NCBI GenBank assembly: GCA_965116355.1
Contig: OZ220679.1
Coordinates: 94,669 to 158,668, forward strand
Length of the DNA stretch: 64,000 nucleotides
Reading direction: 5' to 3'
Origin: Dehalococcoidia bacterium
Lineage (GTDB): Bacteria > Chloroflexota > Dehalococcoidia > Lucifugimonadales > UBA1127
Part shown: positions 6,724 to 56,670 of the stretch, one piece after another
How positions within the stretch are numbered: the first letter of the stretch is position 1
How the letters are laid out: each line of letters begins with the position of its first letter
Position numbers and translations under genes: made by a program
Notes under the pieces: model-generated
Told to the model about the DNA's origin: nothing
What the model saw: the letters and a program-made list of their open reading frames with translations, nothing else
Databases searched by the model: none

Positions 6724-8603
<1,880 letters not shown>

Positions 8604-44568: not shown

Positions 44569-44628
44569 GCGTACTGTTCCTCCCGGTTTGGTCTAGCTTG
44601 CCTTGATTGTCATTCGCCCATTCCCTAG

Positions 44629-44822
44629 CCTTTCGACAGGCTCAGGGCGAACGGGTTTCCCCCATTCTAACCTTCCCCCAAGAGAGAGGAAGGGACTTGG
44701 GCGCCGCTCCGTTTGGCGGGGTTCCTGCCTGCGCAGGAACGACGGGAGGCGTTCGCCCTTCGATTTCCCTCAGGGTGAACGGGGCCGGTTTGTTGGGGTA
44801 CCTGCCTCCGCAGGAACGACGG
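44629..44822 (+). repeat. Composite mosaic repeat C-A-C-A
   Basis: Module C at 44629-44655, A at 44716-44746, C at 44756-44784, A at 44782-44822. The last A supplies the 3' end of the PNPOx-like ORF. Confidence 0.85.
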
Positions 44823-45336
44823 AGCGGCGAGGCGGCTTGTAGGCCGTGCCTCGCTGCTCCGGTGTCCGCTGGTCTATGTACTCCAGCATCGGGACGCCGT
44901 AGCCGCAGCTGGTGACTGTGCTGTCGACGGCGACCTCGATGACCTGCCGCTTGCGGAGGCCGATGGACTCGTCGGCGCTGTGCTCCAAGAGCATTGGCGC
45001 GAGGGGCGACTCGTCGAGGGGCGTCACCGTCGCTTTGCCGAACAGGCGGACGACGGCCGCGTTCTCCTGCTCGAAGGAGCAGACCATCAGCGTCATCGGC
45101 CCGCCGGCGTTCGCGTGCCGTGCGGTCTCGTTGCCGCTGCCGCCGAAGTCGAGGTAGGCGACGCGGTTGGGGCCGAGCACGTGCAGCGGCACGCCGCCCT
45201 TGGGCGACAGGTTGACCGGCCCGACGCCCTCCGGCCCCTCGCCGAGGGACGGGTCTGCGCTCGCCACGAAGAAGAGGTGCGCGTTGCGGATGAGCTCCGC
45301 CTGTTCGCCGGTGATGGCACGGAAATACGTCGCCAT
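44770..45336 (-). CDS. Pyridoxamine 5'-phosphate oxidase-like FMN-binding family protein
   Basis: AELIRNAHLFFVASAD..VNLSPKGG..YLDFGGSGNETARH fits the PNPOx-like split-barrel family. The C-terminal ..RRSVVPAEAGTPTNRPRSP is encoded by repeat module A. Confidence 0.65.
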   Translation of the reverse strand: MATYFRAITGEQAELIRNAHLFFVASADPSLGEGPEGVGPVNLSPKGGVPLHVLGPNRVAYLDFGGSGNETARHANAGGPMTLMVCSFEQENAAVVRLFGKATVTPLDESPLAPMLLEHSADESIGLRKRQVIEVAVDSTVTSCGYGVPMLEYIDQRTPEQRGTAYKPPRRSVVPAEAGTPTNRPRSP

Positions 45337-45357
45337 GGTGCGCCTCCTCCATGCGCG

Positions 45358-45408
45358 GCCCTTCGAGAGCCTCAGGACATGCCCTTCGACAAGCTCAGGG
45401 CGAACGGG
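45358..45408 (+). repeat. Mosaic repeat, double module C
   Basis: GCCCTTCGAGAGCCTCAGGACATGCCCTTCGACAAGCTCAGGGCGAACGGG. Confidence 0.85.
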
Positions 45409-45491
45409 CGCGCAGGTCCGCTAAACCGCGGTTCCGCGGGGCCATGATAGCAACGGGTCTCGGGAGCGTCCACAGCGCGGGAGCCGGTCGC

Positions 45492-46295
45492 CTATGCGCG
45501 CCGCGCCCTTCCAATGAGCGCCAGGAACGCCATCGTCATGCTCACACTGCCGACCAGCGCAATGGCGCCGAACCCGAGGAGGATGTCGGTCCACACCCAG
45601 CCCTCGGTGACCAGGGAGCGCAGACCATCGAGAAGGTAGGTGACGGGATTGTAGGTTGCGATGGCCTGCAGCCAGCCGGTCATCGCCTCCAACGGCACAA
45701 AGATGGTTGTCAGGAATATGAACGGGAAGAAGAGCAGGAAGCTCACGTTGACGGCCGCGGGGTTGCCCGTCTTGAGGGCAATTGCGTACGGGAACCCCGT
45801 GAAGGCCAGTCCCCAGGCGCCGGCCATAGCCATGAACAGGAGGATGCCAAGGATGCCGCTTTCAAAGCGCACGCCGACGGCGTATCCGAGGATGAGCACC
45901 GGGATAGTCAGGGCGACCACCAGCGCGATGTCAGCCACCATGAGGCCCAGCAACAGCGAAAACCGGCTAACCGGCGTCAACGCGAGCCGGTCAAAGTAGC
46001 CGGTCTGGATGTCCGTCACGAGGGTGATGGCGCGGGAAATGCCGGTGACGGCGAAGATGATGGCAACGGGAAGCTGGAATGCCTTGAAGTCAAGCCCGGG
46101 TATCTCCTCCGCAAGGTCCTGCAGCGCGCCGATGTTCACGGCGAAGAAGAAAATGGGGATGACCAGCGCCGGGTAGACGGCCTCGGGGTCGCGAGGGACA
46201 GAGCGCAGCGCGCGGCCGGCGACGGACATAACGTCGCGGTGGAAGCCGGCGTGCCGGGCACGGACCTCGGTTGGGGCTGGTGCGCTAGTCGCCAT
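45492..46295 (-). CDS. ABC-2 type transporter permease (DrrB-like)
   Basis: 267 aa with 6 hydrophobic segments. 11-nt overlap with the upstream ATPase gene. Confidence 0.8.
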   Translation of the reverse strand: MATSAPAPTEVRARHAGFHRDVMSVAGRALRSVPRDPEAVYPALVIPIFFFAVNIGALQDLAEEIPGLDFKAFQLPVAIIFAVTGISRAITLVTDIQTGYFDRLALTPVSRFSLLLGLMVADIALVVALTIPVLILGYAVGVRFESGILGILLFMAMAGAWGLAFTGFPYAIALKTGNPAAVNVSFLLFFPFIFLTTIFVPLEAMTGWLQAIATYNPVTYLLDGLRSLVTEGWVWTDILLGFGAIALVGSVSMTMAFLALIGRARRA

Positions 46296-47256
46296 CTGCT
46301 TGCTCCTCCGTGCCTACCTCTTCAAAGCGCTCGCCCGTGACGCTGAGGAAGACGTCGTCAAGGGTCGGCGTGTGCATGCGTATCTCGCGCAGCTCAACGC
46401 CGTTCCGGTTCAAGGCCAGCGCGACGGGGCCGATCTGCGCGGAGCCGTTCGTGACACGCACGACGACCTCATTGCCGTAGACGTCCACCTGCTCGATGGA
46501 CGGCAGCGCGCCGACGGCGAGCCGGGCCTCCTCGGCGTCGCCGTCCACCTGCGCGATGATCACATCGGCGCCCATCGAGCGCTTGAGCTCGGCGGGCGTG
46601 CCCTCGGCGGCGAGGACGCCCTGGTTGATGATGCCGACGCGGTCGGCGAGCTGGTCGGCTTCCTCCAGGTACTGCGTCGTCAGGAAGATGGTGACGCCCA
46701 GCTCCTTGTTGACGCGGCGGACCTCCTCCCACACGCGGGAGCGGCTGATCGGGTCGAGGCCGGTCGTTGGCTCGTCGAGGAAGAGGACCTCGGGGTTGTG
46801 GATGAGCGCAGCGGCGAGGTCCAAGCGGCGCTTCATTCCGCCGGAGTAAGTGCTGATAAAGCGCGACATGGCATCGCCGATGTCCACCAGCGAGGCCAGC
46901 TCGTCGACGCGGCGGCGGACCTGGCGCCCCGTCAGGCCGTACAGGAAGCCCTGCAGGCGAAGGAACTCGATGCCCGTCTGCTTTGGGTCGAGGGCGGTGT
47001 CCTGGAGGGCGGCACCGATGCGCAGGCGAATCTCCTTCGCGTCGGACACGAGCTCACGGCCGACGACCCACGCCTGGCCGGCAGTCGGCAGCAGCAGCGT
47101 GATGAGCATGCGCACGAGCGTCGTCTTGCCGGCGCCGTTGGGGCCGAGAAAGCCGTAAATCTCACCCTTGCCGATGTCGAGGTCGACGCCGTTGACGGCC
47201 TTGACCTCGCCAAAAGAGCGAGAGATTCCGGACGCATAGATAGCCCAATCGTTCAA
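46285..47256 (-). CDS. ABC transporter ATP-binding protein (DrrA-like)
   Basis: [12 protein letters not shown] (Walker A), YSGGMKRRL (signature) and [11 protein letters not shown] (Walker B). The start is uncertain: I chose TTG 47256, and the track ORF starts at 47331. Confidence 0.85.
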
Positions 47257-47380
47257 TGCGGTAACTTCCAAAGGTGAGGTTAACCGTGACCTTTCCAGTG
47301 TACGGAGAGGCGTCAGGCAGGCGCAAGGCAATACACGGAATCACGACATTCCAAGAGGGAATGGAGCGGCCGGCGGCGCG

Positions 47381-47779
47381 CTACCGGTAGGTCAGCAGCT
47401 CCTCCAGCCGGGCTACGAAACGGGCCACGTGTGCGAGCGAGTCACGGACGTAGGGGCGCTCGAGCCAGCTCTCATAGAAGTTGGTGTGGAGGCTGCTTGC
47501 CAACTGGAATTGCATCCGCGCTTCGGGGGCCTTGAGCTCGTCAACCAGGCGGTTGACCACGCGGAACAGGTCTCGAACGCTCTCGTGTTGCCAGCCGCGC
47601 TCTTCGGCGACCGCCTTCACGATGGTGACTGCCGCGCCCCAGCCGTGGCCGGAGGCCTCTCCCAGTTCACCTCTATCGAACTCTTCCGCGGCTGCGGCCA
47701 GGTACTTTCGGCTCTGGTCGAGATAGATGGTCTGCGCCGACATGACGTAGCCGTCCCTGGTCAAGTATCTGCTCTCCAT
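47381..47779 (-). CDS. PaREP1/PaREP8-like four-helix protein (copy 1)
   Basis: ..GELGEASGHGWGAAVTIVKAVAEERGW.H.S.RDLF..V..L......LHTNFYESWL. The family call is from memory of the Pfam PaREP1 pattern. GAGGAG lies 9 nt upstream of ATG 47779. An alternative start is at 47743. Confidence 0.55.
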   Translation of the reverse strand: MESRYLTRDGYVMSAQTIYLDQSRKYLAAAAEEFDRGELGEASGHGWGAAVTIVKAVAEERGWQHESVRDLFRVVNRLVDELKAPEARMQFQLASSLHTNFYESWLERPYVRDSLAHVARFVARLEELLTYR

Positions 47780-47928
47780 ATCCGGTGGCTCCTCAATGGG
47801 AGTCCAGCATTCACGTATTCAATATAGCGCAAATCACGGGCGTGGGAAAGGGAGCAGGCCCAAATCTGCGGCGATTGGCGGGGGAATTGGTGGGCGCGGG
47901 GTTGTCGACGGCGGGAGCGGGGACGCGG

Positions 47929-48291
47929 CTACTGCGATTGCAACAGTCCTTCCACACGATTGACCAACTCCGTCACCTGACCCAGCGACCGCTCAACGGC
48001 GTCGCGCTCCAACCAGCCCTCGTAGAAGTTCCTGTGGAGCCCGCTGGCGGTCTGAAAGAGCATGGGCAAGTCCATGTCGCCGGTCTCCGCCGCAAGCTGG
48101 TTGACGGCGAGGAACAAGTCCCGGTGGGCATCGTGCGTCAGGTCACGCTCATCCGCAGCGGCCTTGACCATTTCCGCCACAGCTCCCCAACCCTTCTCGG
48201 AGGCTTGGCACAGGTCGCCCCTGGCAAGCTCCTCACCGGCTTGGGTGAGGTAGGTCCGGCTTTGACTACGATAGAAGGACCGGGTTGTCAT
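47929..48291 (-). CDS. PaREP1/PaREP8-like four-helix protein (copy 2)
   Basis: MTTRSFYRSQSRTYLTQAGEELARGDLCQASEKGWGAVAEMVKAAADERDL.H..HRDLF....LHRNFYEGWL. Confidence 0.55.
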   Translation of the reverse strand: MTTRSFYRSQSRTYLTQAGEELARGDLCQASEKGWGAVAEMVKAAADERDLTHDAHRDLFLAVNQLAAETGDMDLPMLFQTASGLHRNFYEGWLERDAVERSLGQVTELVNRVEGLLQSQ

Positions 48292-48395
48292 CGGGCGTGG
48301 CTCCGTTAAGACTTGGACAACGCAAGTCCATTCTAGCAAACGTACCGACGTGCCGCCAATGAAGGCGGCATCTTTCGACCGCTACGCGTTTTCAG

Positions 48396-49712
48396 TCAGG
48401 ACGTCGTGTTCTCTATGCCGGGGTGGACGACGAAGGCCTTGCGCAGCTCCTCCGTGGCCTCCAGCCAGTCGGCGTCGCGGGGCAGGATGACGCCGCCGGA
48501 GCGCACCTGGTAGAGCTCGGGGTTGTCGACGGCGGGAGCGGGGACGCCCTCCTGCAGGGAGCGGGCGGCGTTGATGAGCCGCTGGCGCGTCTTGATGATC
48601 ATGCCGTCGCTGGTGCCGAGCCGCTCGCGGGTGCGGTCGACGATGGGGTCCATACTCTCAGTGATGGCCTGGTCCTGCATGTGGATGCCGGCGATGCCCG
48701 TGAAGCTCTTGTTGCGCTGGGCATCGCGGTCGATGTAGTAGTCGTTGGCCTTGTTGGCCTCGAAGCGGTGGCGCTCCAGCCAGCCGGTGCCGTCGGGGAG
48801 CTTGCCTCGCGCGCCGCCGAGGCCCACGAGCGGGTTGCCGTTGACGTCCCTGCGGGCCATGGAGCTGTTGGTGTTGCGGATGGACATGCTGGTGAACATC
48901 GTGTGGTTGTCGTCGACGGGCACCCAGCAGCGCACGCCGATCTTCTCGCCGAGGCGGCCCTCCGGCGGGATGGTGTAGAAGGGCATCATGAACTGGGCGA
49001 TGCGCCAGTAGTAGGTGTCGTCCTCCGCCGGGCGGTAGGCGCCGTACATGGTGCCGTAGTCCGTCTCGACGATCTTGTAGTGGGGCGCCTTCTCGCGCTG
49101 GTTGTAGTAATCGAAGGTGCCGGGCAGGACGTCGTCCGCGGCCACCTTCCCGAGGTGCAGGAAGGTCAGGTGGGCGGTGTCGATGTCGCCCTCCATCGCC
49201 TGCACCCAGTTGCACTCGCGGAGGCCGGCGGAGTTGGAGTCGACGCTCTCCTCCATCATGTTGGGCTCGATGTCCGGCAGCGGCGGCAGGACCTCGCGCG
49301 GGCCCATGTAGGCCCAGATCATGCCGTTGCGCTCGGCCATCCTGTAAGCCTTGATCTTGACCTTGTCCTTGAAGTTGGACTCGGCGGGCTCCGAGGGCAT
49401 GTCGACGCAATCGCCGTTCACGTCGAACTTCCAGCCGTGATAGACACAGCGGATGCCGCACTCCTCGTTTCGGCCGAAGAAGAGGCTCGCGCGGCGGTGG
49501 GGGCAGTAGTTGTCGATGAGGCCGAGCTCGCCGTTGGTGTCACGGAAGGCGATGAGGTCCTCGCCCAGCAGGCGCAGGCGGACGGGGTCGCTGTCGGGCC
49601 CGGGCAGCTCGGTGGAGAGCAGCGCGGGGATCCAGTACTCGCGCAGAAGGTCGCCCATCGGCGTGCCGGGGCCGACGCGCGTGAGGGTCTCGTTGTCGTG
49701 CTGTGAGAGCAT
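48396..49712 (-). CDS. Rieske [2Fe-2S] non-heme-iron oxygenase, alpha-subunit type (paralogue 2)
   Basis: CPHRRASL..CVYHGWKF. The N-terminus MLSQHDNETLTRVGPGTPMG parallels paralogue 1. Confidence 0.9.
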   Translation of the reverse strand: MLSQHDNETLTRVGPGTPMGDLLREYWIPALLSTELPGPDSDPVRLRLLGEDLIAFRDTNGELGLIDNYCPHRRASLFFGRNEECGIRCVYHGWKFDVNGDCVDMPSEPAESNFKDKVKIKAYRMAERNGMIWAYMGPREVLPPLPDIEPNMMEESVDSNSAGLRECNWVQAMEGDIDTAHLTFLHLGKVAADDVLPGTFDYYNQREKAPHYKIVETDYGTMYGAYRPAEDDTYYWRIAQFMMPFYTIPPEGRLGEKIGVRCWVPVDDNHTMFTSMSIRNTNSSMARRDVNGNPLVGLGGARGKLPDGTGWLERHRFEANKANDYYIDRDAQRNKSFTGIAGIHMQDQAITESMDPIVDRTRERLGTSDGMIIKTRQRLINAARSLQEGVPAPAVDNPELYQVRSGGVILPRDADWLEATEELRKAFVVHPGIENTTS

Positions 49713-49812
49713 TCGCTCCTCCTTCGAGGCGTGTTGCTAGCAGTCTAGGAAGCGAGCGTGGGCGCGTCAAGGACGGCGTGGCAGGAGGTAGGGGGTCAGG
49801 GCGCGGGGGCGG

Positions 49813-50005
49813 CCCTTCGACAGGCTCAGGGCGAACAGGGAAGGTAACAGTGGCCCTAAGGCGGGCATCCTGGATGCCCGCCTTCGCGGGAATGACGGTG
49901 GTGGTGGTCCTGGGTACCGGCTTCCGCCGGTGAAACGAGAGAAGGCGAGGGCAGGCTCCTTCGACAGGGCTCAGGACGGGGTCAAGACGGGATCAGGGCG
50001 AACGG
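49813..50005 (+). repeat. Composite mosaic repeat C-A'-B-C-C
   Basis: Module C at 49813-49839. Variant hairpin GGCGGGCATCC-TG-GATGCCCGCC..CGCGGGAATGACGG. Module B is GGTACCGGCTTCCGCCGGTGAAACGAG. A double C runs to 50005. Confidence 0.8.
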
Positions 50006-50462: not shown

Positions 50463-50858
50463 CCCCTTCGAGAGCCTCAGGACAGGCCCTTCGTCAGGCT
50501 CAGGACAGGCTTCGATTTCCCTCAGGGCGAATGGGGGGCGGGCGTCGCTCCGTTTGTCGGGGTTCCTGCCTGCGCAGGAACGACGGGGGTGGGGCCCCTG
50601 GACACCGGCTTCCGCCGGTGAAACGAGGGGAGGCGGGGGCGGCCCTTCGACATGCCCAGTGCGAACGGGAGGTCGGACGTCGCTCCGTTTGTCGGGGTTC
50701 CTGCCTGCGCAGGAACGACGGGGGCGGGGCCCCTGGACACCGGCTTCCGCCGGTGAAACGAGGGGAGGCGGGGGCGGCCCTTCGACATGCCCAGTGCGAA
50801 CGGGAGGTCGGGCGTCGCTCCGTTTGTCGGGGTTCCTGCCTGCGCAGGAACGACGGGG
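50463..50858 (+). repeat. Composite mosaic-repeat array C-C-C then (A-B-C)x2 then A, with a 135-nt tandem period
   Basis: GTCGCTCCGTTTGTCGGGGTTCCTGCC starts at 50544, 50679 and 50814. Units 1 and 2 differ at 2 of 135 positions. The array ends exactly at the stop codon (50859-50861) of the FtsX-type permease. Confidence 0.92.
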
Positions 50859-53800
50859 TTACTCGTAGCGGAGGGCTTCCGCGGGGGAGACGTCGGCGGC
50901 CTGGCGGGCGGGGAGGAACGTCGTCAGCAGGGAGAAGACGTAGGCGCCGGCGGCGATCAGGAGAATCTTGGCCAGCGGCAATGAGAATCGGAGGTCCGGC
51001 TCATCCTCCCGCAGCTCGAAGATGAGGTTGACGGAGGAGACAAGACCGAGCCCCAAGCCCACCCCGATGCCCAGCAGGGCGATGAAGGACGATTCCGCGA
51101 GGAAGCTCAGGTTCACCATGCCGCGGGAGAAGCCAATCGCGCGGAGCACGCCGATCTCGTGGCGGCGCTCGACGACGGCGCGGGCGCTGATGACGCCGAG
51201 CGCGGCGATGCCCACCACGAGGCCGAGCGACATGAAGCCGATGAGCAGGTTGAAGAGCGCGCGGTTCGATTCCTGCGCGCTCTCGACTGTCTCGATCACG
51301 TCTATGGTCTCAATGCCGTGCTGGAAGAAGGCCGACTCGATGATGTTGGCGCCGTTCTCGGCGTCGTCGCTCACGTTGAAGAAGAACTGCGTCGCGTCCG
51401 CCTCGCGGCCAAGGGTTTGCTCGGACGTGTAGAAGCCGACGGGAATTGGTCCGCTGGAGGCAAAGGTGTCCAGCACCGCGATCACGGTCAGGTCCACCGA
51501 CTCTCCAACCTCAAGGTCCCTGACCGTCACCGCCACTGGGTCCATGACCTCATCTTCCAGGTAGAAGTCAGGCACGCCTTCCAGTGTGAACCGGTTGAAC
51601 TCCTGCTGGAACGCAAAGTTGTTCCTGGTTGGCACAAGGAGTGAATTAACAACGGCCAGGCCGGGATTGGCCCGCAACGCCTCCCAGACGGCCCTGGCGT
51701 CCGCCTCGCCGTCGACGGTGTACTCAGGGGTGGTCAGGGCGATTGTGAACCTGTTAGTCGCCAGGAAGGCGTCGTCGACGCCGACGATGACGGTGTCCGC
51801 GTAGTCGCCGTCTGTGTCGGACGTCAGCCGGCCGTCGGCCTGGAAGACGGCGTGGAACGTGCCCACCGAGGGCCTGCCGTCAACGCGCTCGACGATGTCC
51901 AAGTCCGGGTTGGCCTCGACGACCGCCTGGACGTCGGCGACGGGGTTGAGGTCGCTGCGGGCGTAGCCGATGACCTCGTAGCCGCCGCCGAGCCGCTCCT
52001 GGTTCTCGAAGAGGTTGTCGAAGGCGTCGAGGAGCGTCGCCATGAGCGTGACGGAGAAGATGACGATGGCGAACATGGCCAACGACAGGCCCGTGCGGTA
52101 GCCAAAGCGGAGGGGGTAGGACACCGCGGACTTGACCACCGGCGAGAAGCGCCTGATCCGCCCAAGGGTGTTGGTCATCAGTCCCAGCACGAGGGGCGAG
52201 TTGTTGATGGTCACCAGCACCGCCCCGGTAACGAGCATGACGCCGGAGGCGAAGAAGGAACTAAAGTCCTCATTCCACTCGCCGCCCCTGATCGCGTTCA
52301 TCGTGCCGTGGGGGATGAGCCAGTAGGCCACCAGGAGAATGCCGACCACCGTGAAGGTCCATCGCTGGGATGCTCCAAGGGAACGCGCCACCATGCCGGA
52401 CCCGAGGATGGTCAGGGAGACCCCGAGGCCGAAGCTCGTGAGGTGGTTGCCGTTCCACCCCGCCATGAGGAGCAACAGGCCAATGACCGCAACGGCAACG
52501 GCCTGAATCATGGCTCGAATGCGGGACCGGGTCACGGCAGCTTCAGGCAGGTCCCGAATGGCCTGCACGATGTTGAGCCGGCTGATTCGGCGCGAGGACA
52601 TGTAGACCGTGACGAACGTGAGCACGGAGCCGACCAGGAAGGATACAAGGAAGCTGACGGGCTGCGCGTGCGGCGTAAGGCTGAAGTCCCCCGGGGCCCC
52701 TTGCTCGAATATCGAGGCGACACCCTCGACGAGGAGCATTCCCAGCCCGATGCCGATGGCTGCGCCGATGAACGCGGAGCCGACTCCGTAGATGGAGCCC
52801 TCGACCGTGAACATCCGCACCAGGTGGTGACGCTGCATGCCGATGGCTCGCGACATGCCCATTTCGGTCTTCCGCTCGGCGGCCAGCATGGAGAAGATGA
52901 GGAAGATCAGCAGCAGCCCGACGCCGATGGAGAACAGGCCGAATGTGGTGAAGAAGGAGACGAAGAGGCTTCCCACCGCATTGGCCGTGTCCAGGACATC
53001 CTGCTTGATGGGAATGATCTCCAGGCCCTGGCCCTCAATCTCTTCGTGGAACTCGTATCGGTCGACGATGGTCTGGCTCAGTTCAACGCCCGCGGTGGCG
53101 TCGCCGGCGTTGGAGATCAGCAGCGAGGAGAGCTCGCCGGGCCGGTCGAGCAGCGCCTGTACGTTGCCGAGGGACATCATCAGGATGACGTCCGTGCCCG
53201 TCCCGCTGAAATAGGAATCTTCAACAATGCCGCCAATCGCGATGGGGGTGGGGGCTCCCGGCCCGAAGAACACGTTGAGCGTGCCGCCGACAGCCACCTC
53301 GAGCTCGTCCGCGCCGTCGCGGGTGATGTAGGCGGTGTTGTCCGTGAGGCCCGCAAGATCGACGGGGTTGCCATCCTCGTCAAAGAGCTCCTCAAAGCTC
53401 TCCGCGCGAGTCGAATGCAGTCCCGCCAGCAGCGCGCCGGACTCGAACTGCCGGCTGTCGGGGTTGATGACGGCGACGTCCTCGGTCAGGGCGGGCAGCA
53501 CACCGTCGACGTCCGGGTCGGCGTCAAGGGCCGCCTCCAGCGCGAGGACGCTGTCGGCGGAGAAGCCCTTCGGCAGCTCGCGGCCCTCCCACAGCTCCGA
53601 GTCCTCGTCGACGACTACGAACTCGTCGAGGGAGCGGAGGGACTCGGTGGCGACGCGCTTGATGCTGTACGAAACGGAGTCGCCGACGGTGAAGGCGCTG
53701 GAGATGATGGCCGTCGCAAGCATGAGGCCCGTGAGGATGAGGAGGCTCTGGCCCGGACGGCGGCGGGCGTTCCGGACGGCCATGCGCACGAGGATGGGGT

Positions 53801-55878: not shown

Positions 55879-56238
55879 TTAACCCCGCGCCAGCAGTTCT
55901 TCCAACTTCTCCACGAAGCGTGAAATGTCCTGCAAATGGGAAGCTATATCCCACGATGCAAGCTGCCCCTCATAAAAGTTTGTATGCAACTCCCCTGCCA
56001 CCTGAAAGAGTTCCAAGTATTCGGCAACACCCTCTTCCGACACCAGCCGCCGAATCGAATCATAAAGCTGGTTGTGACGACTGTGGCTCCATCCCCTGGC
56101 GTCTGCCACTGCCTTCAATATCTGTGACGCCGCCCCCCATCCCTTTTCCGACGCTTGTCGAAGGTCATTGCGGGAAAGCTCCTCAAAAGCCTGGTCAAGG
56201 AAAACGCGGCTTTGCAACCGGTATTCGGCCTGGGTCAT
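55879..56238 (-). CDS. PaREP1/PaREP8-like four-helix protein (copy 3)
   Basis: MTQAEYRLQSRVFLDQAFEELSRNDLRQASEKGWGAASQILKAVADARGWSHSRHNQLY....LHTNFYEGQL. Confidence 0.55.
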   Translation of the reverse strand: MTQAEYRLQSRVFLDQAFEELSRNDLRQASEKGWGAASQILKAVADARGWSHSRHNQLYDSIRRLVSEEGVAEYLELFQVAGELHTNFYEGQLASWDIASHLQDISRFVEKLEELLARG

Positions 56239-56241
56239 AGC

Positions 56242-56670
56242 TCATGCTTGCCCAGAATACGGCTGATCAGGTTCTTCCCGGACAGAGTGCGGGAGCACCG
56301 GCCCCCCCACCGCCAACATCCGGTCCAGCGTGGCCATGAACTCGTTTACCCTTTTCAGGCTGTGCTCAACGTCCATGTCCGCGTACATGCCATCAAACGG
56401 GGCGGTGCGCAGGTGCCCGGCGGCAGCGAACAACTTGTGCAAGTCTCGCTCCGAGGACTCGCGCGTCAGCCTGCTTACCAAGTTGTACGTCGCCCACGGC
56501 TCCGCAGCGTCCGCCGGCGTCCAGCCCCAGGCATGGGCGATGGCATGCACTTTGTGCGACGCGGCTTCCCACCCCTTGTCCGCAGCGGCCTGCAACTCGC
56601 CGGCTGCAAGGGCGGACTTGGCCTCCGCGAGGCGGGTACGGCTGAGTTCGTCATGTGGTGTGTGGGACAC
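56242..56670 (-). CDS. Divergent PaREP1-like protein (copy 4), 3 nt upstream of copy 3
   Basis: A GTG start at 56670 has AAGGAG 6 nt upstream. MSHTPHDELSRTRLAEAKSALAAGELQAAADKGWEAASHKVHAIAHAWGW aligns position for position with copy 3 up to KGW. It lacks the LHxNFYE motif (it has HLRTAPFDGMY). Confidence 0.5.
   Translation of the reverse strand: MSHTPHDELSRTRLAEAKSALAAGELQAAADKGWEAASHKVHAIAHAWGWTPADAAEPWATYNLVSRLTRESSERDLHKLFAAAGHLRTAPFDGMYADMDVEHSLKRVNEFMATLDRMLAVGGPVLPHSVREEPDQPYSGQA

Follow-up and report, generated by a model that had tools for sequence, protein, structure and literature searches.

A 30-nt direct repeat in a mosaic oxygenase-PaREP1 locus of a Dehalococcoidia bacterium: a candidate templated patch at a recombination joint

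Genes of the locus and a 30-nt repeat with two genomic copies

The locus described here lies in a 64,000-nucleotide (nt) stretch of a Dehalococcoidia bacterium genome (hereafter the window), which corresponds to positions 94669-158668 of a genome assembled as a single contig of 2,591,952 bp. Around genome position ~142,600, two small genes of the PaREP1 family, here called c2 and c1, stand in tandem between a gene coding for a LigXa-type Rieske oxygenase and the genes of an ABC ATPase and an ABC-2 permease (Table 1), and a perfect 30-nt direct repeat links the 3' part of the oxygenase gene to the joint between the two PaREP1 genes. The gene identities proposed by a first-pass annotation of the window were upheld by profile searches, both small proteins scoring above the 24.4-bit cut-off of PF05942 (PaREP1; 75.4 bits for c2 and 59.4 bits for c1) and the oxygenase carrying the Rieske and LigXa_C domains. 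The c2 protein also matches the solved structure of the PaREP1 family (PDB 2Q00/2JPU, E=7e-4). Both small proteins keep the H of the HEPN motif and lack its R (LHRNFYE / LHTNFYE), and they are 50% identical to each other at the amino acid (aa) level. The true start of c1 is probably the ATG at 47743, which gives a protein of 120 aa instead of the 132 aa of the long open reading frame (ORF), since its length then equals that of c2 and of most homologues and since G003, the closest species genome, has the upstream ATG in a different frame.

The 30-mer CGGGGTTGTCGACGGCGGGAGCGGGGACGC is present at two exact sites in the window (copies 1 and 2 in Table 1, in plus-strand coordinates), spaced by 621 bp. 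Copy 1 lies within the oxygenase gene and copy 2 starts 2 nt (CC) past the TAG stop codon of c2 (47929-47931). Identity stops at exactly 30 nt, the bases on either side differing between the copies. The two sites, their spacing and their positions relative to the oxygenase gene and to c2 had been reported by the first-pass annotation, whose judgement that such a repeat is very unlikely to arise by chance in 64 kb also proved sound: no third site with 3 mismatches or fewer occurs in the window, none appeared in 100 shuffles, and in the whole genome, where none would be expected by chance, the 30-mer is present at these two sites only. A genome scan allowing 7 mismatches added chance-level matches and the equivalent site in a paralogue of the oxygenase (68% identical; 4 mismatches). 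The possibility that the 30-mer is a generic repeat found at many unrelated sites, which the annotation had named as fatal to its proposal, is ruled out by this two-copy count and by the sub-words of 16 nt or more, which are all confined to the same two genome sites. The expectation that the 30-mer would recur next to other PaREP1-like genes was disappointed, as it adjoins none of the other five among the seven PF05942 matches of the genome.

Table 1. Features of the oxygenase-PaREP1 locus in window coordinates; A and B are the two ancestry types defined in the text
Feature	Positions	Strand	Remarks
LigXa-type Rieske oxygenase, 438 aa	48396..49712	-	Pfam Rieske 1.9e-18, LigXa_C 2.4e-34
30-mer copy 1	48518..48547	-	inside the oxygenase coding sequence, codons G389-E399 (GVPAPAVDNPE); probable source copy
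A-to-B switch interval close to the oxygenase stop	48414..48452	-	informative sites
Post-oxygenase spacer, 25 nt, homologous to relatives	48371..48395	-	homology to L005 reaches 48371
Hairpin TGCCGCC-TTCATT-GGCGGCA, 5' edge of the c2 cassette	48351..48370	-	common to L060; occupies the position of the relatives' oxygenase terminator
Predicted c2 promoter (TTGGCG, 18 nt, extended -10 TG-n-TAGAAT)	48330..48359	-	conserved in L060 and L061
PaREP1 c2, 120 aa, B-type cassette	47929..48291	-	PF05942 4.4e-21
30-mer copy 2	47897..47926	-	candidate patch, filling precisely the joint of the c2 cassette's 3' end with the c1 spacer
Spacer upstream of c1, with predicted promoter at 47821-47848	47780..47896	-	matches the relatives' oxygenase-to-c1 spacer just past the terminator
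PaREP1 c1, type common in the genus	47381..47779	-	PF05942 4.1e-16
Approximate A-to-B homologous recombination breakpoint, 5' part of the ABC ATPase gene	47100..47200	-	informative sites, sliding windows, pairwise identities
ABC ATPase	46285-47331	-	
ABC-2 permease	45492-46295	-	

A variable PaREP1 slot in related genomes

The locus was compared with those of 11 congeners and with 7 metagenomic or other loci (18 related loci, cited below by our G and L numbers). Of the 12 further species genomes available for the genus, 11 have a full-length orthologue of the oxygenase (80-96% aa identity), and the spacer between the oxygenase and ABC genes (47381-48370 here; compared in L005, L006-L011, L013, L060, L061, L063-L065 and L068) holds zero, one or two PaREP1 genes of three types (c1, c2 and X), each with its own promoter. 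The ABC genes follow directly in G006 and G010, c1 alone occupies the slot in G004, G008, G009, G001, G005, L063, L064, L065 and L068, and G012 retains a c1 remnant of 26 aa. A c2-type gene stands between the oxygenase and ABC genes in L061, and is preceded by a gene of type X in L060. The tandem of c2 and c1 was found in this genome only among the compared loci, and the pair is therefore lineage-specific, as the first-pass annotation had anticipated for orthologous oxygenase loci, G006 and G010 having no PaREP1 gene at all.

The two genes of the tandem have distinct affinities. The orthologues of c1 in G004, G008, G009, G001 and G005 are 70-78% identical to it at the aa level and 52-56% identical to c2, and c1 shares 92.7% of its nucleotides with its counterpart in G003. 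None of the 12 congeners harbors a close relative of c2, the best match among them (56%) being precisely these c1 orthologues. A search of a large protein collection recovered c2-type proteins on the contigs L060 (91% aa and 89% nt identity) and L061 (83% aa), and the X protein is ~40% identical to c2 (tblastn). A recent tandem duplication of the oxygenase tail together with a PaREP1 gene is ruled out by the 50% identity of c1 and c2, against 70-78% for c1 orthologues in other species.

The site of copy 1 is kept at the same place in all oxygenase orthologues (0-7 mismatches) and is identical in G003 and in L068/L069, which correspond to assembly GCA_028874895.1 and a matching metagenome scaffold. 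In L068/L069 the identical 30-mer occurs once, inside the oxygenase gene, and is followed by the stop codon, a terminator hairpin, the spacer, c1 and the ABC genes. The c1 side of G003 (contig C109) has the same empty-site layout, with the terminator, then the spacer, then c1, and the 3' arm of the oxygenase terminator hairpin precedes the c1 spacer in G003, L068, G004, G008, G009, G005 and G001. No second copy of the 30-mer was detected in any related locus with 7-8 mismatches allowed, nor in the c2 carriers L060 and L061 with up to 8 mismatches. The case of relatives lacking the PaREP1 gene and still carrying both copies, which the annotation had considered as an objection, was thus not encountered.

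The distribution of the three types looks like an allelic turnover of cassettes carrying a conflict- or defence-type gene. PaREP1/8 proteins constitute the HEPN-T family, which keeps the H and lacks the R of the Rx4-6H motif, forms tandem repeats and is catalogued as archaeal (PMC3710099), and in Pyrobaculum they are associated with strain-specific insertions and deletions (PMC3558965). The genes reported here resemble PaREP1/PaREP8 in coding for small four-helix proteins with the H and without the R, in their tandem arrangement and in being tied to strain-specific insertions and deletions. They differ in that the family has been described as archaeal, whereas here it is found in Chloroflexota, in a conserved slot beside a Rieske oxygenase gene and with alleles only ~50% identical.

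Several other features were noted in the same genomes. A second tandem PaREP1 pair is present in the window (55915-56220 and 56353-56649), one member scoring 61.9 bits and the other, a degenerate copy, 22.4 bits against the cut-off of 24.4. A second conserved pairing of a PaREP1 gene with an oxygenase paralogue, ~2 kb apart, lies at G000:C1:1837043-1837324 and 1839672-1840997 and is also found in G004, G012, G001, G009 and G003, so that the PaREP1-oxygenase neighbourhood recurs. The LigXa-type Rieske oxygenase of this locus has at least 42 scored matches in each genome of the genus, indicating a very large family of paralogues. In G003 (the metagenome-assembled genome Chloroflexota bacterium RHO3_bin_79), the oxygenase stop is followed at 25 nt by the end of a histidine kinase gene (HAMP-HisKA-HATPase_c) in convergent orientation (L004, contig C43 1-1204), and the terminator, c1 and the ABC genes lie on a separate contig behind an unannotated ORF of 335 aa (L045, contig C109 1-1350). 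Either the same terminator was disrupted a second time, independently, or the contigs were misjoined. In L060, an NYN-domain gene (7413-8249) lies between the genes of the ABC-2 permease and a PNPOx-like protein and is absent at the same place here (45337-45491). Finally, intergenic modules with hairpins, or similar to repetitive extragenic palindromic (REP) sequences, are abundant (families D1, D2, D4, D9 and D13; window 44600-44850, 49800-49950, 50500-50860 and others), and one of them fills the spacer between the oxygenase gene and c2 in L061 (540-640).

Junctions and mosaic ancestry of the locus

Alignment with the relatives divides the locus into segments that leave no base unassigned. 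The oxygenase gene and the 25 nt behind it, down to 48371, are homologous to all relatives. They are followed by the c2 cassette with its hairpin, promoter and gene (48369-47924), which matches positions 4923-5368 of L060 at 88.8%, then by copy 2 of the 30-mer (47926-47897), identical to copy 1 in the oxygenase gene, and from 47897 downward by the spacer upstream of c1 and c1 itself, which correspond to contig C109 of G003 and to L068. The left edge of the novel DNA therefore falls at 48370/48371, i.e. 25 nt past the oxygenase stop. With respect to the empty site, the terminator and ~10 nt have been lost, and the c2 cassette of 444 nt and the 30-mer have been gained. The segments overlap at their borders by 2-3 nt between c2 and the 30-mer (GC or GCG) and by 1 nt between the 30-mer and the spacer (G), overlaps that agree with microhomology at the edges of a patch but are too short for a statistical test. 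Among the 591 nt between the repeats, 147 are native, namely the last 122 nt of the oxygenase gene including its stop and the spacer of 25 nt, and these are collinear with every orthologue, including those of genomes without PaREP1.

Ancestry along positions 45600-49700 was read from informative sites, sliding windows and pairwise identities, in comparison with L068, L045 (G003) and L060. We call A-type the sequence of the G003/L068 lineage (oxygenase, terminator, c1) and B-type that of the L060 lineage, with L061 (oxygenase, hairpin, c2). From 49680 to 48452 the oxygenase gene is A-type (~55 A sites versus 5 B sites), and its last two informative sites (48414 and 48399) are B-type. Along the oxygenase tail the sites are successively A, B, A, A, B and B, and the tail is thus not uniformly foreign. 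The c2 gene is B-type (89% nt identity to L060), and copy 2 carries the A allele at both informative positions, with 2 mismatches to L060 and 4 to L061. A-type sequence is found again in the c1 spacer, throughout c1 and over ~130 nt at the start of the ABC ATPase gene, with 93-97% identity in the coding and downstream part. Beyond ~47100 the rest of the ABC gene and the ABC-2 gene belong to the B type, diverging by ~10% from L060 and by 20-29% from L068.

The order across the locus is therefore A, B, 30-mer with the A allele, A, B, a change of topology that pairwise identities bear out. Copy 2 stands exactly at the B-to-A switch, which is the sole switch without supporting homology. No recombination breakpoint was found by sliding windows at the 30-mer within the oxygenase gene, the A-to-B switch lying 66-104 nt further on. 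Copy 2 is accordingly a short tract, identical to nearby sequence, placed exactly at the junction of segments of different origin, as is expected of a templated patch.

Origin of the second copy and significance

Templated, or filler, insertions at illegitimate joints are known from microhomology-mediated template switching and from homology-facilitated illegitimate recombination in naturally transformable bacteria. We consider with moderate confidence that copy 2 is a recombination scar of this kind, a templated patch of 30 nt at an illegitimate recombination joint. In the ancestry of this genome, A-type and B-type DNA, as chromosome or fragment, would have recombined, one end by ordinary homologous recombination, within either the last ~55 nt of the oxygenase gene or the 5' part of the ABC gene, and the other, devoid of homology, by illegitimate joining. 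At that joint a 3' end may have primed briefly on the nearby oxygenase gene and copied 30 nt, after which the copying end would have switched to the spacer upstream of c1, with overlaps of 1-3 nt at the borders. Such an event would have removed the terminator and ~10 nt and left c2 and c1 in tandem. Either cassette may be the newcomer, and either direction would need one illegitimate joint and one further homologous exchange. No Ku gene was found in the genome, so that end joining dependent on Ku is less likely than a replicative or microhomology-mediated switch.

The locus shares with known templated fillers a tract identical to sequence a few hundred bp off and placed exactly at a novel joint, border overlaps of 1-3 nt, one side of the exchange anchored in homology, and the loss of recipient DNA (the terminator) at the joint. 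It differs in being a natural case inferred from comparative genomics alone, and in that Ku/LigD end joining is not the route, as there is no Ku gene. Several points weigh against the templated patch. A template switch offers no proof of itself beyond the geometry, the microhomologies are short (GC or GCG on one side, G on the other), and the alternating ancestry requires at least two recombination events whichever cassette was transferred. In addition, the 18 related loci contain no intermediate and no sister strain with the same joint, which is known from one assembly; exact-protein look-ups of c2 and of the oxygenase and two scans of Joint Genome Institute (JGI) metagenomes gave no independent contig carrying it, and a scan of the species genomes for the joint returned only the single 30-mer copy of G003.

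The first-pass annotation had read the repeat as a target-site or att-type duplication created when a small PaREP1 cassette inserted at the end of the oxygenase gene. The part of this proposal that stands is that the tandem is lineage-specific and that copy 2 marks a novel joint to the base. A target-site duplication or the att core of a mobile cassette that would have entered the oxygenase gene at its 3' end, through transposition or site-specific recombination, is in our view very improbable. As with integrative elements that target the 3' ends of genes and leave att duplications, exact direct repeats, one of them in the 3' part of a gene, bracket a unit with a lineage-specific gene, and the same spacer was struck independently in other lineages, by the X cassette in L060 and by the histidine kinase gene abutting the oxygenase gene in G003. 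However, the empty site (L068/L069 and the right half of G003) has its single 30-mer copy 122 nt before the oxygenase stop and places the novel DNA 25 nt past that stop, and an insertion point past the stop speaks against both kinds of duplication. Moreover, wholly foreign DNA would be expected between target-site repeats, whereas 147 nt, including the gene tail, are native; the displaced oxygenase 3' end is absent after copy 2, where the spacer upstream of c1 stands instead; and the c2-type cassettes of L060 and L061 occupy the same slot without a second 30-mer. The 591-nt unit codes for c2 only, with no recombinase and no terminal inverted repeats, neither the sequence upstream of the cassette nor the 30-mer has further copies elsewhere in the genome, and the nearest tyrosine recombinase gene is ~59 kb away (PF00589 matches at 83,245 and 221,976). 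A speculative proposal, to which we attach little credence, is that the spacer could serve, around its terminator hairpin, as an integration hot spot dedicated to promoter-bearing PaREP1/HEPN-T cassettes, which co-resident Chloroflexota lineages would trade by means of a recombination machinery so far unrecognised. The 30-nt copy of the neighbouring gene would then be a by-product of strand transfer by that machinery and no isolated accident.

A more serious competitor, though one we hold to be rather unlikely, is that copy 2 is the remnant of a longer duplication. The 3' part of the oxygenase gene from the 30-mer on, borne by a fragment or circle, would have integrated beside c2, by Campbell-type or homology-facilitated illegitimate recombination, giving the order c2, 30-mer, oxygenase tail, terminator, spacer and c1, and a deletion of ~190 bp would later have removed the second tail and terminator. 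The A-type allele of copy 2, contiguous with the A-type block to its right, agrees with such a history, as do the A-type genomes, in which the 30-mer lies ~190 nt upstream of the c1 spacer on the same molecule. The sequences behind copy 2 (CGCCCACCA) and copy 1 (AGCTCTACCA) are alike at 7 of 10 positions and could have guided the deletion. Yet this history takes an extra step, with a deletion ending exactly where the 30-nt identity ends, no trace of the oxygenase tail or terminator is seen after copy 2, and no intermediate exists in the 18 related loci. An assembly artefact, the single contig being a consensus of co-occurring A- and B-type strains and the joint of c2, 30-mer and c1 existing in no cell, is unlikely and has in our estimate only a slim chance. 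The alternation of A and B over ~4 kb also resembles strain switching in metagenome assemblies, and the lack of an independent contig with the joint points the same way, but strain switching is confined to shared sequence and cannot make the novel junctions from TAGCC to the 30-mer and from the 30-mer to CGCCCACC, both of which are absent from either parental arrangement and need spanning reads. Scarcely any weight can be given to the idea that copy 2 has a function between c2 and c1, such as Rho loading at a C-rich site or some regulatory role, and that selection or gene conversion has preserved its identity. Its mRNA strand is very rich in C, and it takes the place of the terminator that stands here in the relatives, but it is confined to this genome and has no counterpart at other PaREP1 pairs, and a functional RNA was rejected, as Rfam gave no match and the fold does not exceed shuffled sequences in stability (z = +0.67).

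Two further candidates were rejected. A similarity of the ancestral terminator and spacer to the 30-mer, which might have guided gene conversion, was not significant, the fraction of random windows scoring as high or higher being 0.45 for L068 and 0.72 for G003. Nor was there significant support for a 30-mer-like motif shared by PaREP1 cassettes at their 3' ends: the tract behind X in L060 falls within the top 2% of random windows, among ~35 flanks inspected.

The templated patch probably has no function of its own. A predictable effect of the direct 30-nt repeats is that they could mediate a deletion of 621 bp removing c2, which would leave an oxygenase of 426 aa with its last 40 residues replaced by an unrelated tail of 29 residues. 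As a scar, the joint belongs to a known class of events, that of illegitimate joints with templated filler, and would provide a clean, base-resolved natural example of illegitimate recombination setting two alleles in tandem and leaving a templated patch, in itself a small matter. The more useful context is that of a supposedly archaeal family, PaREP1/HEPN-T, residing in a conserved, fast-turnover slot of a Chloroflexota genus. Three cassette types only ~40-50% identical to one another, together with mosaic flanks, are typical of conflict or defence genes, and the mosaic, as read from the sequence types, points to frequent homologous recombination between co-occurring lineages.

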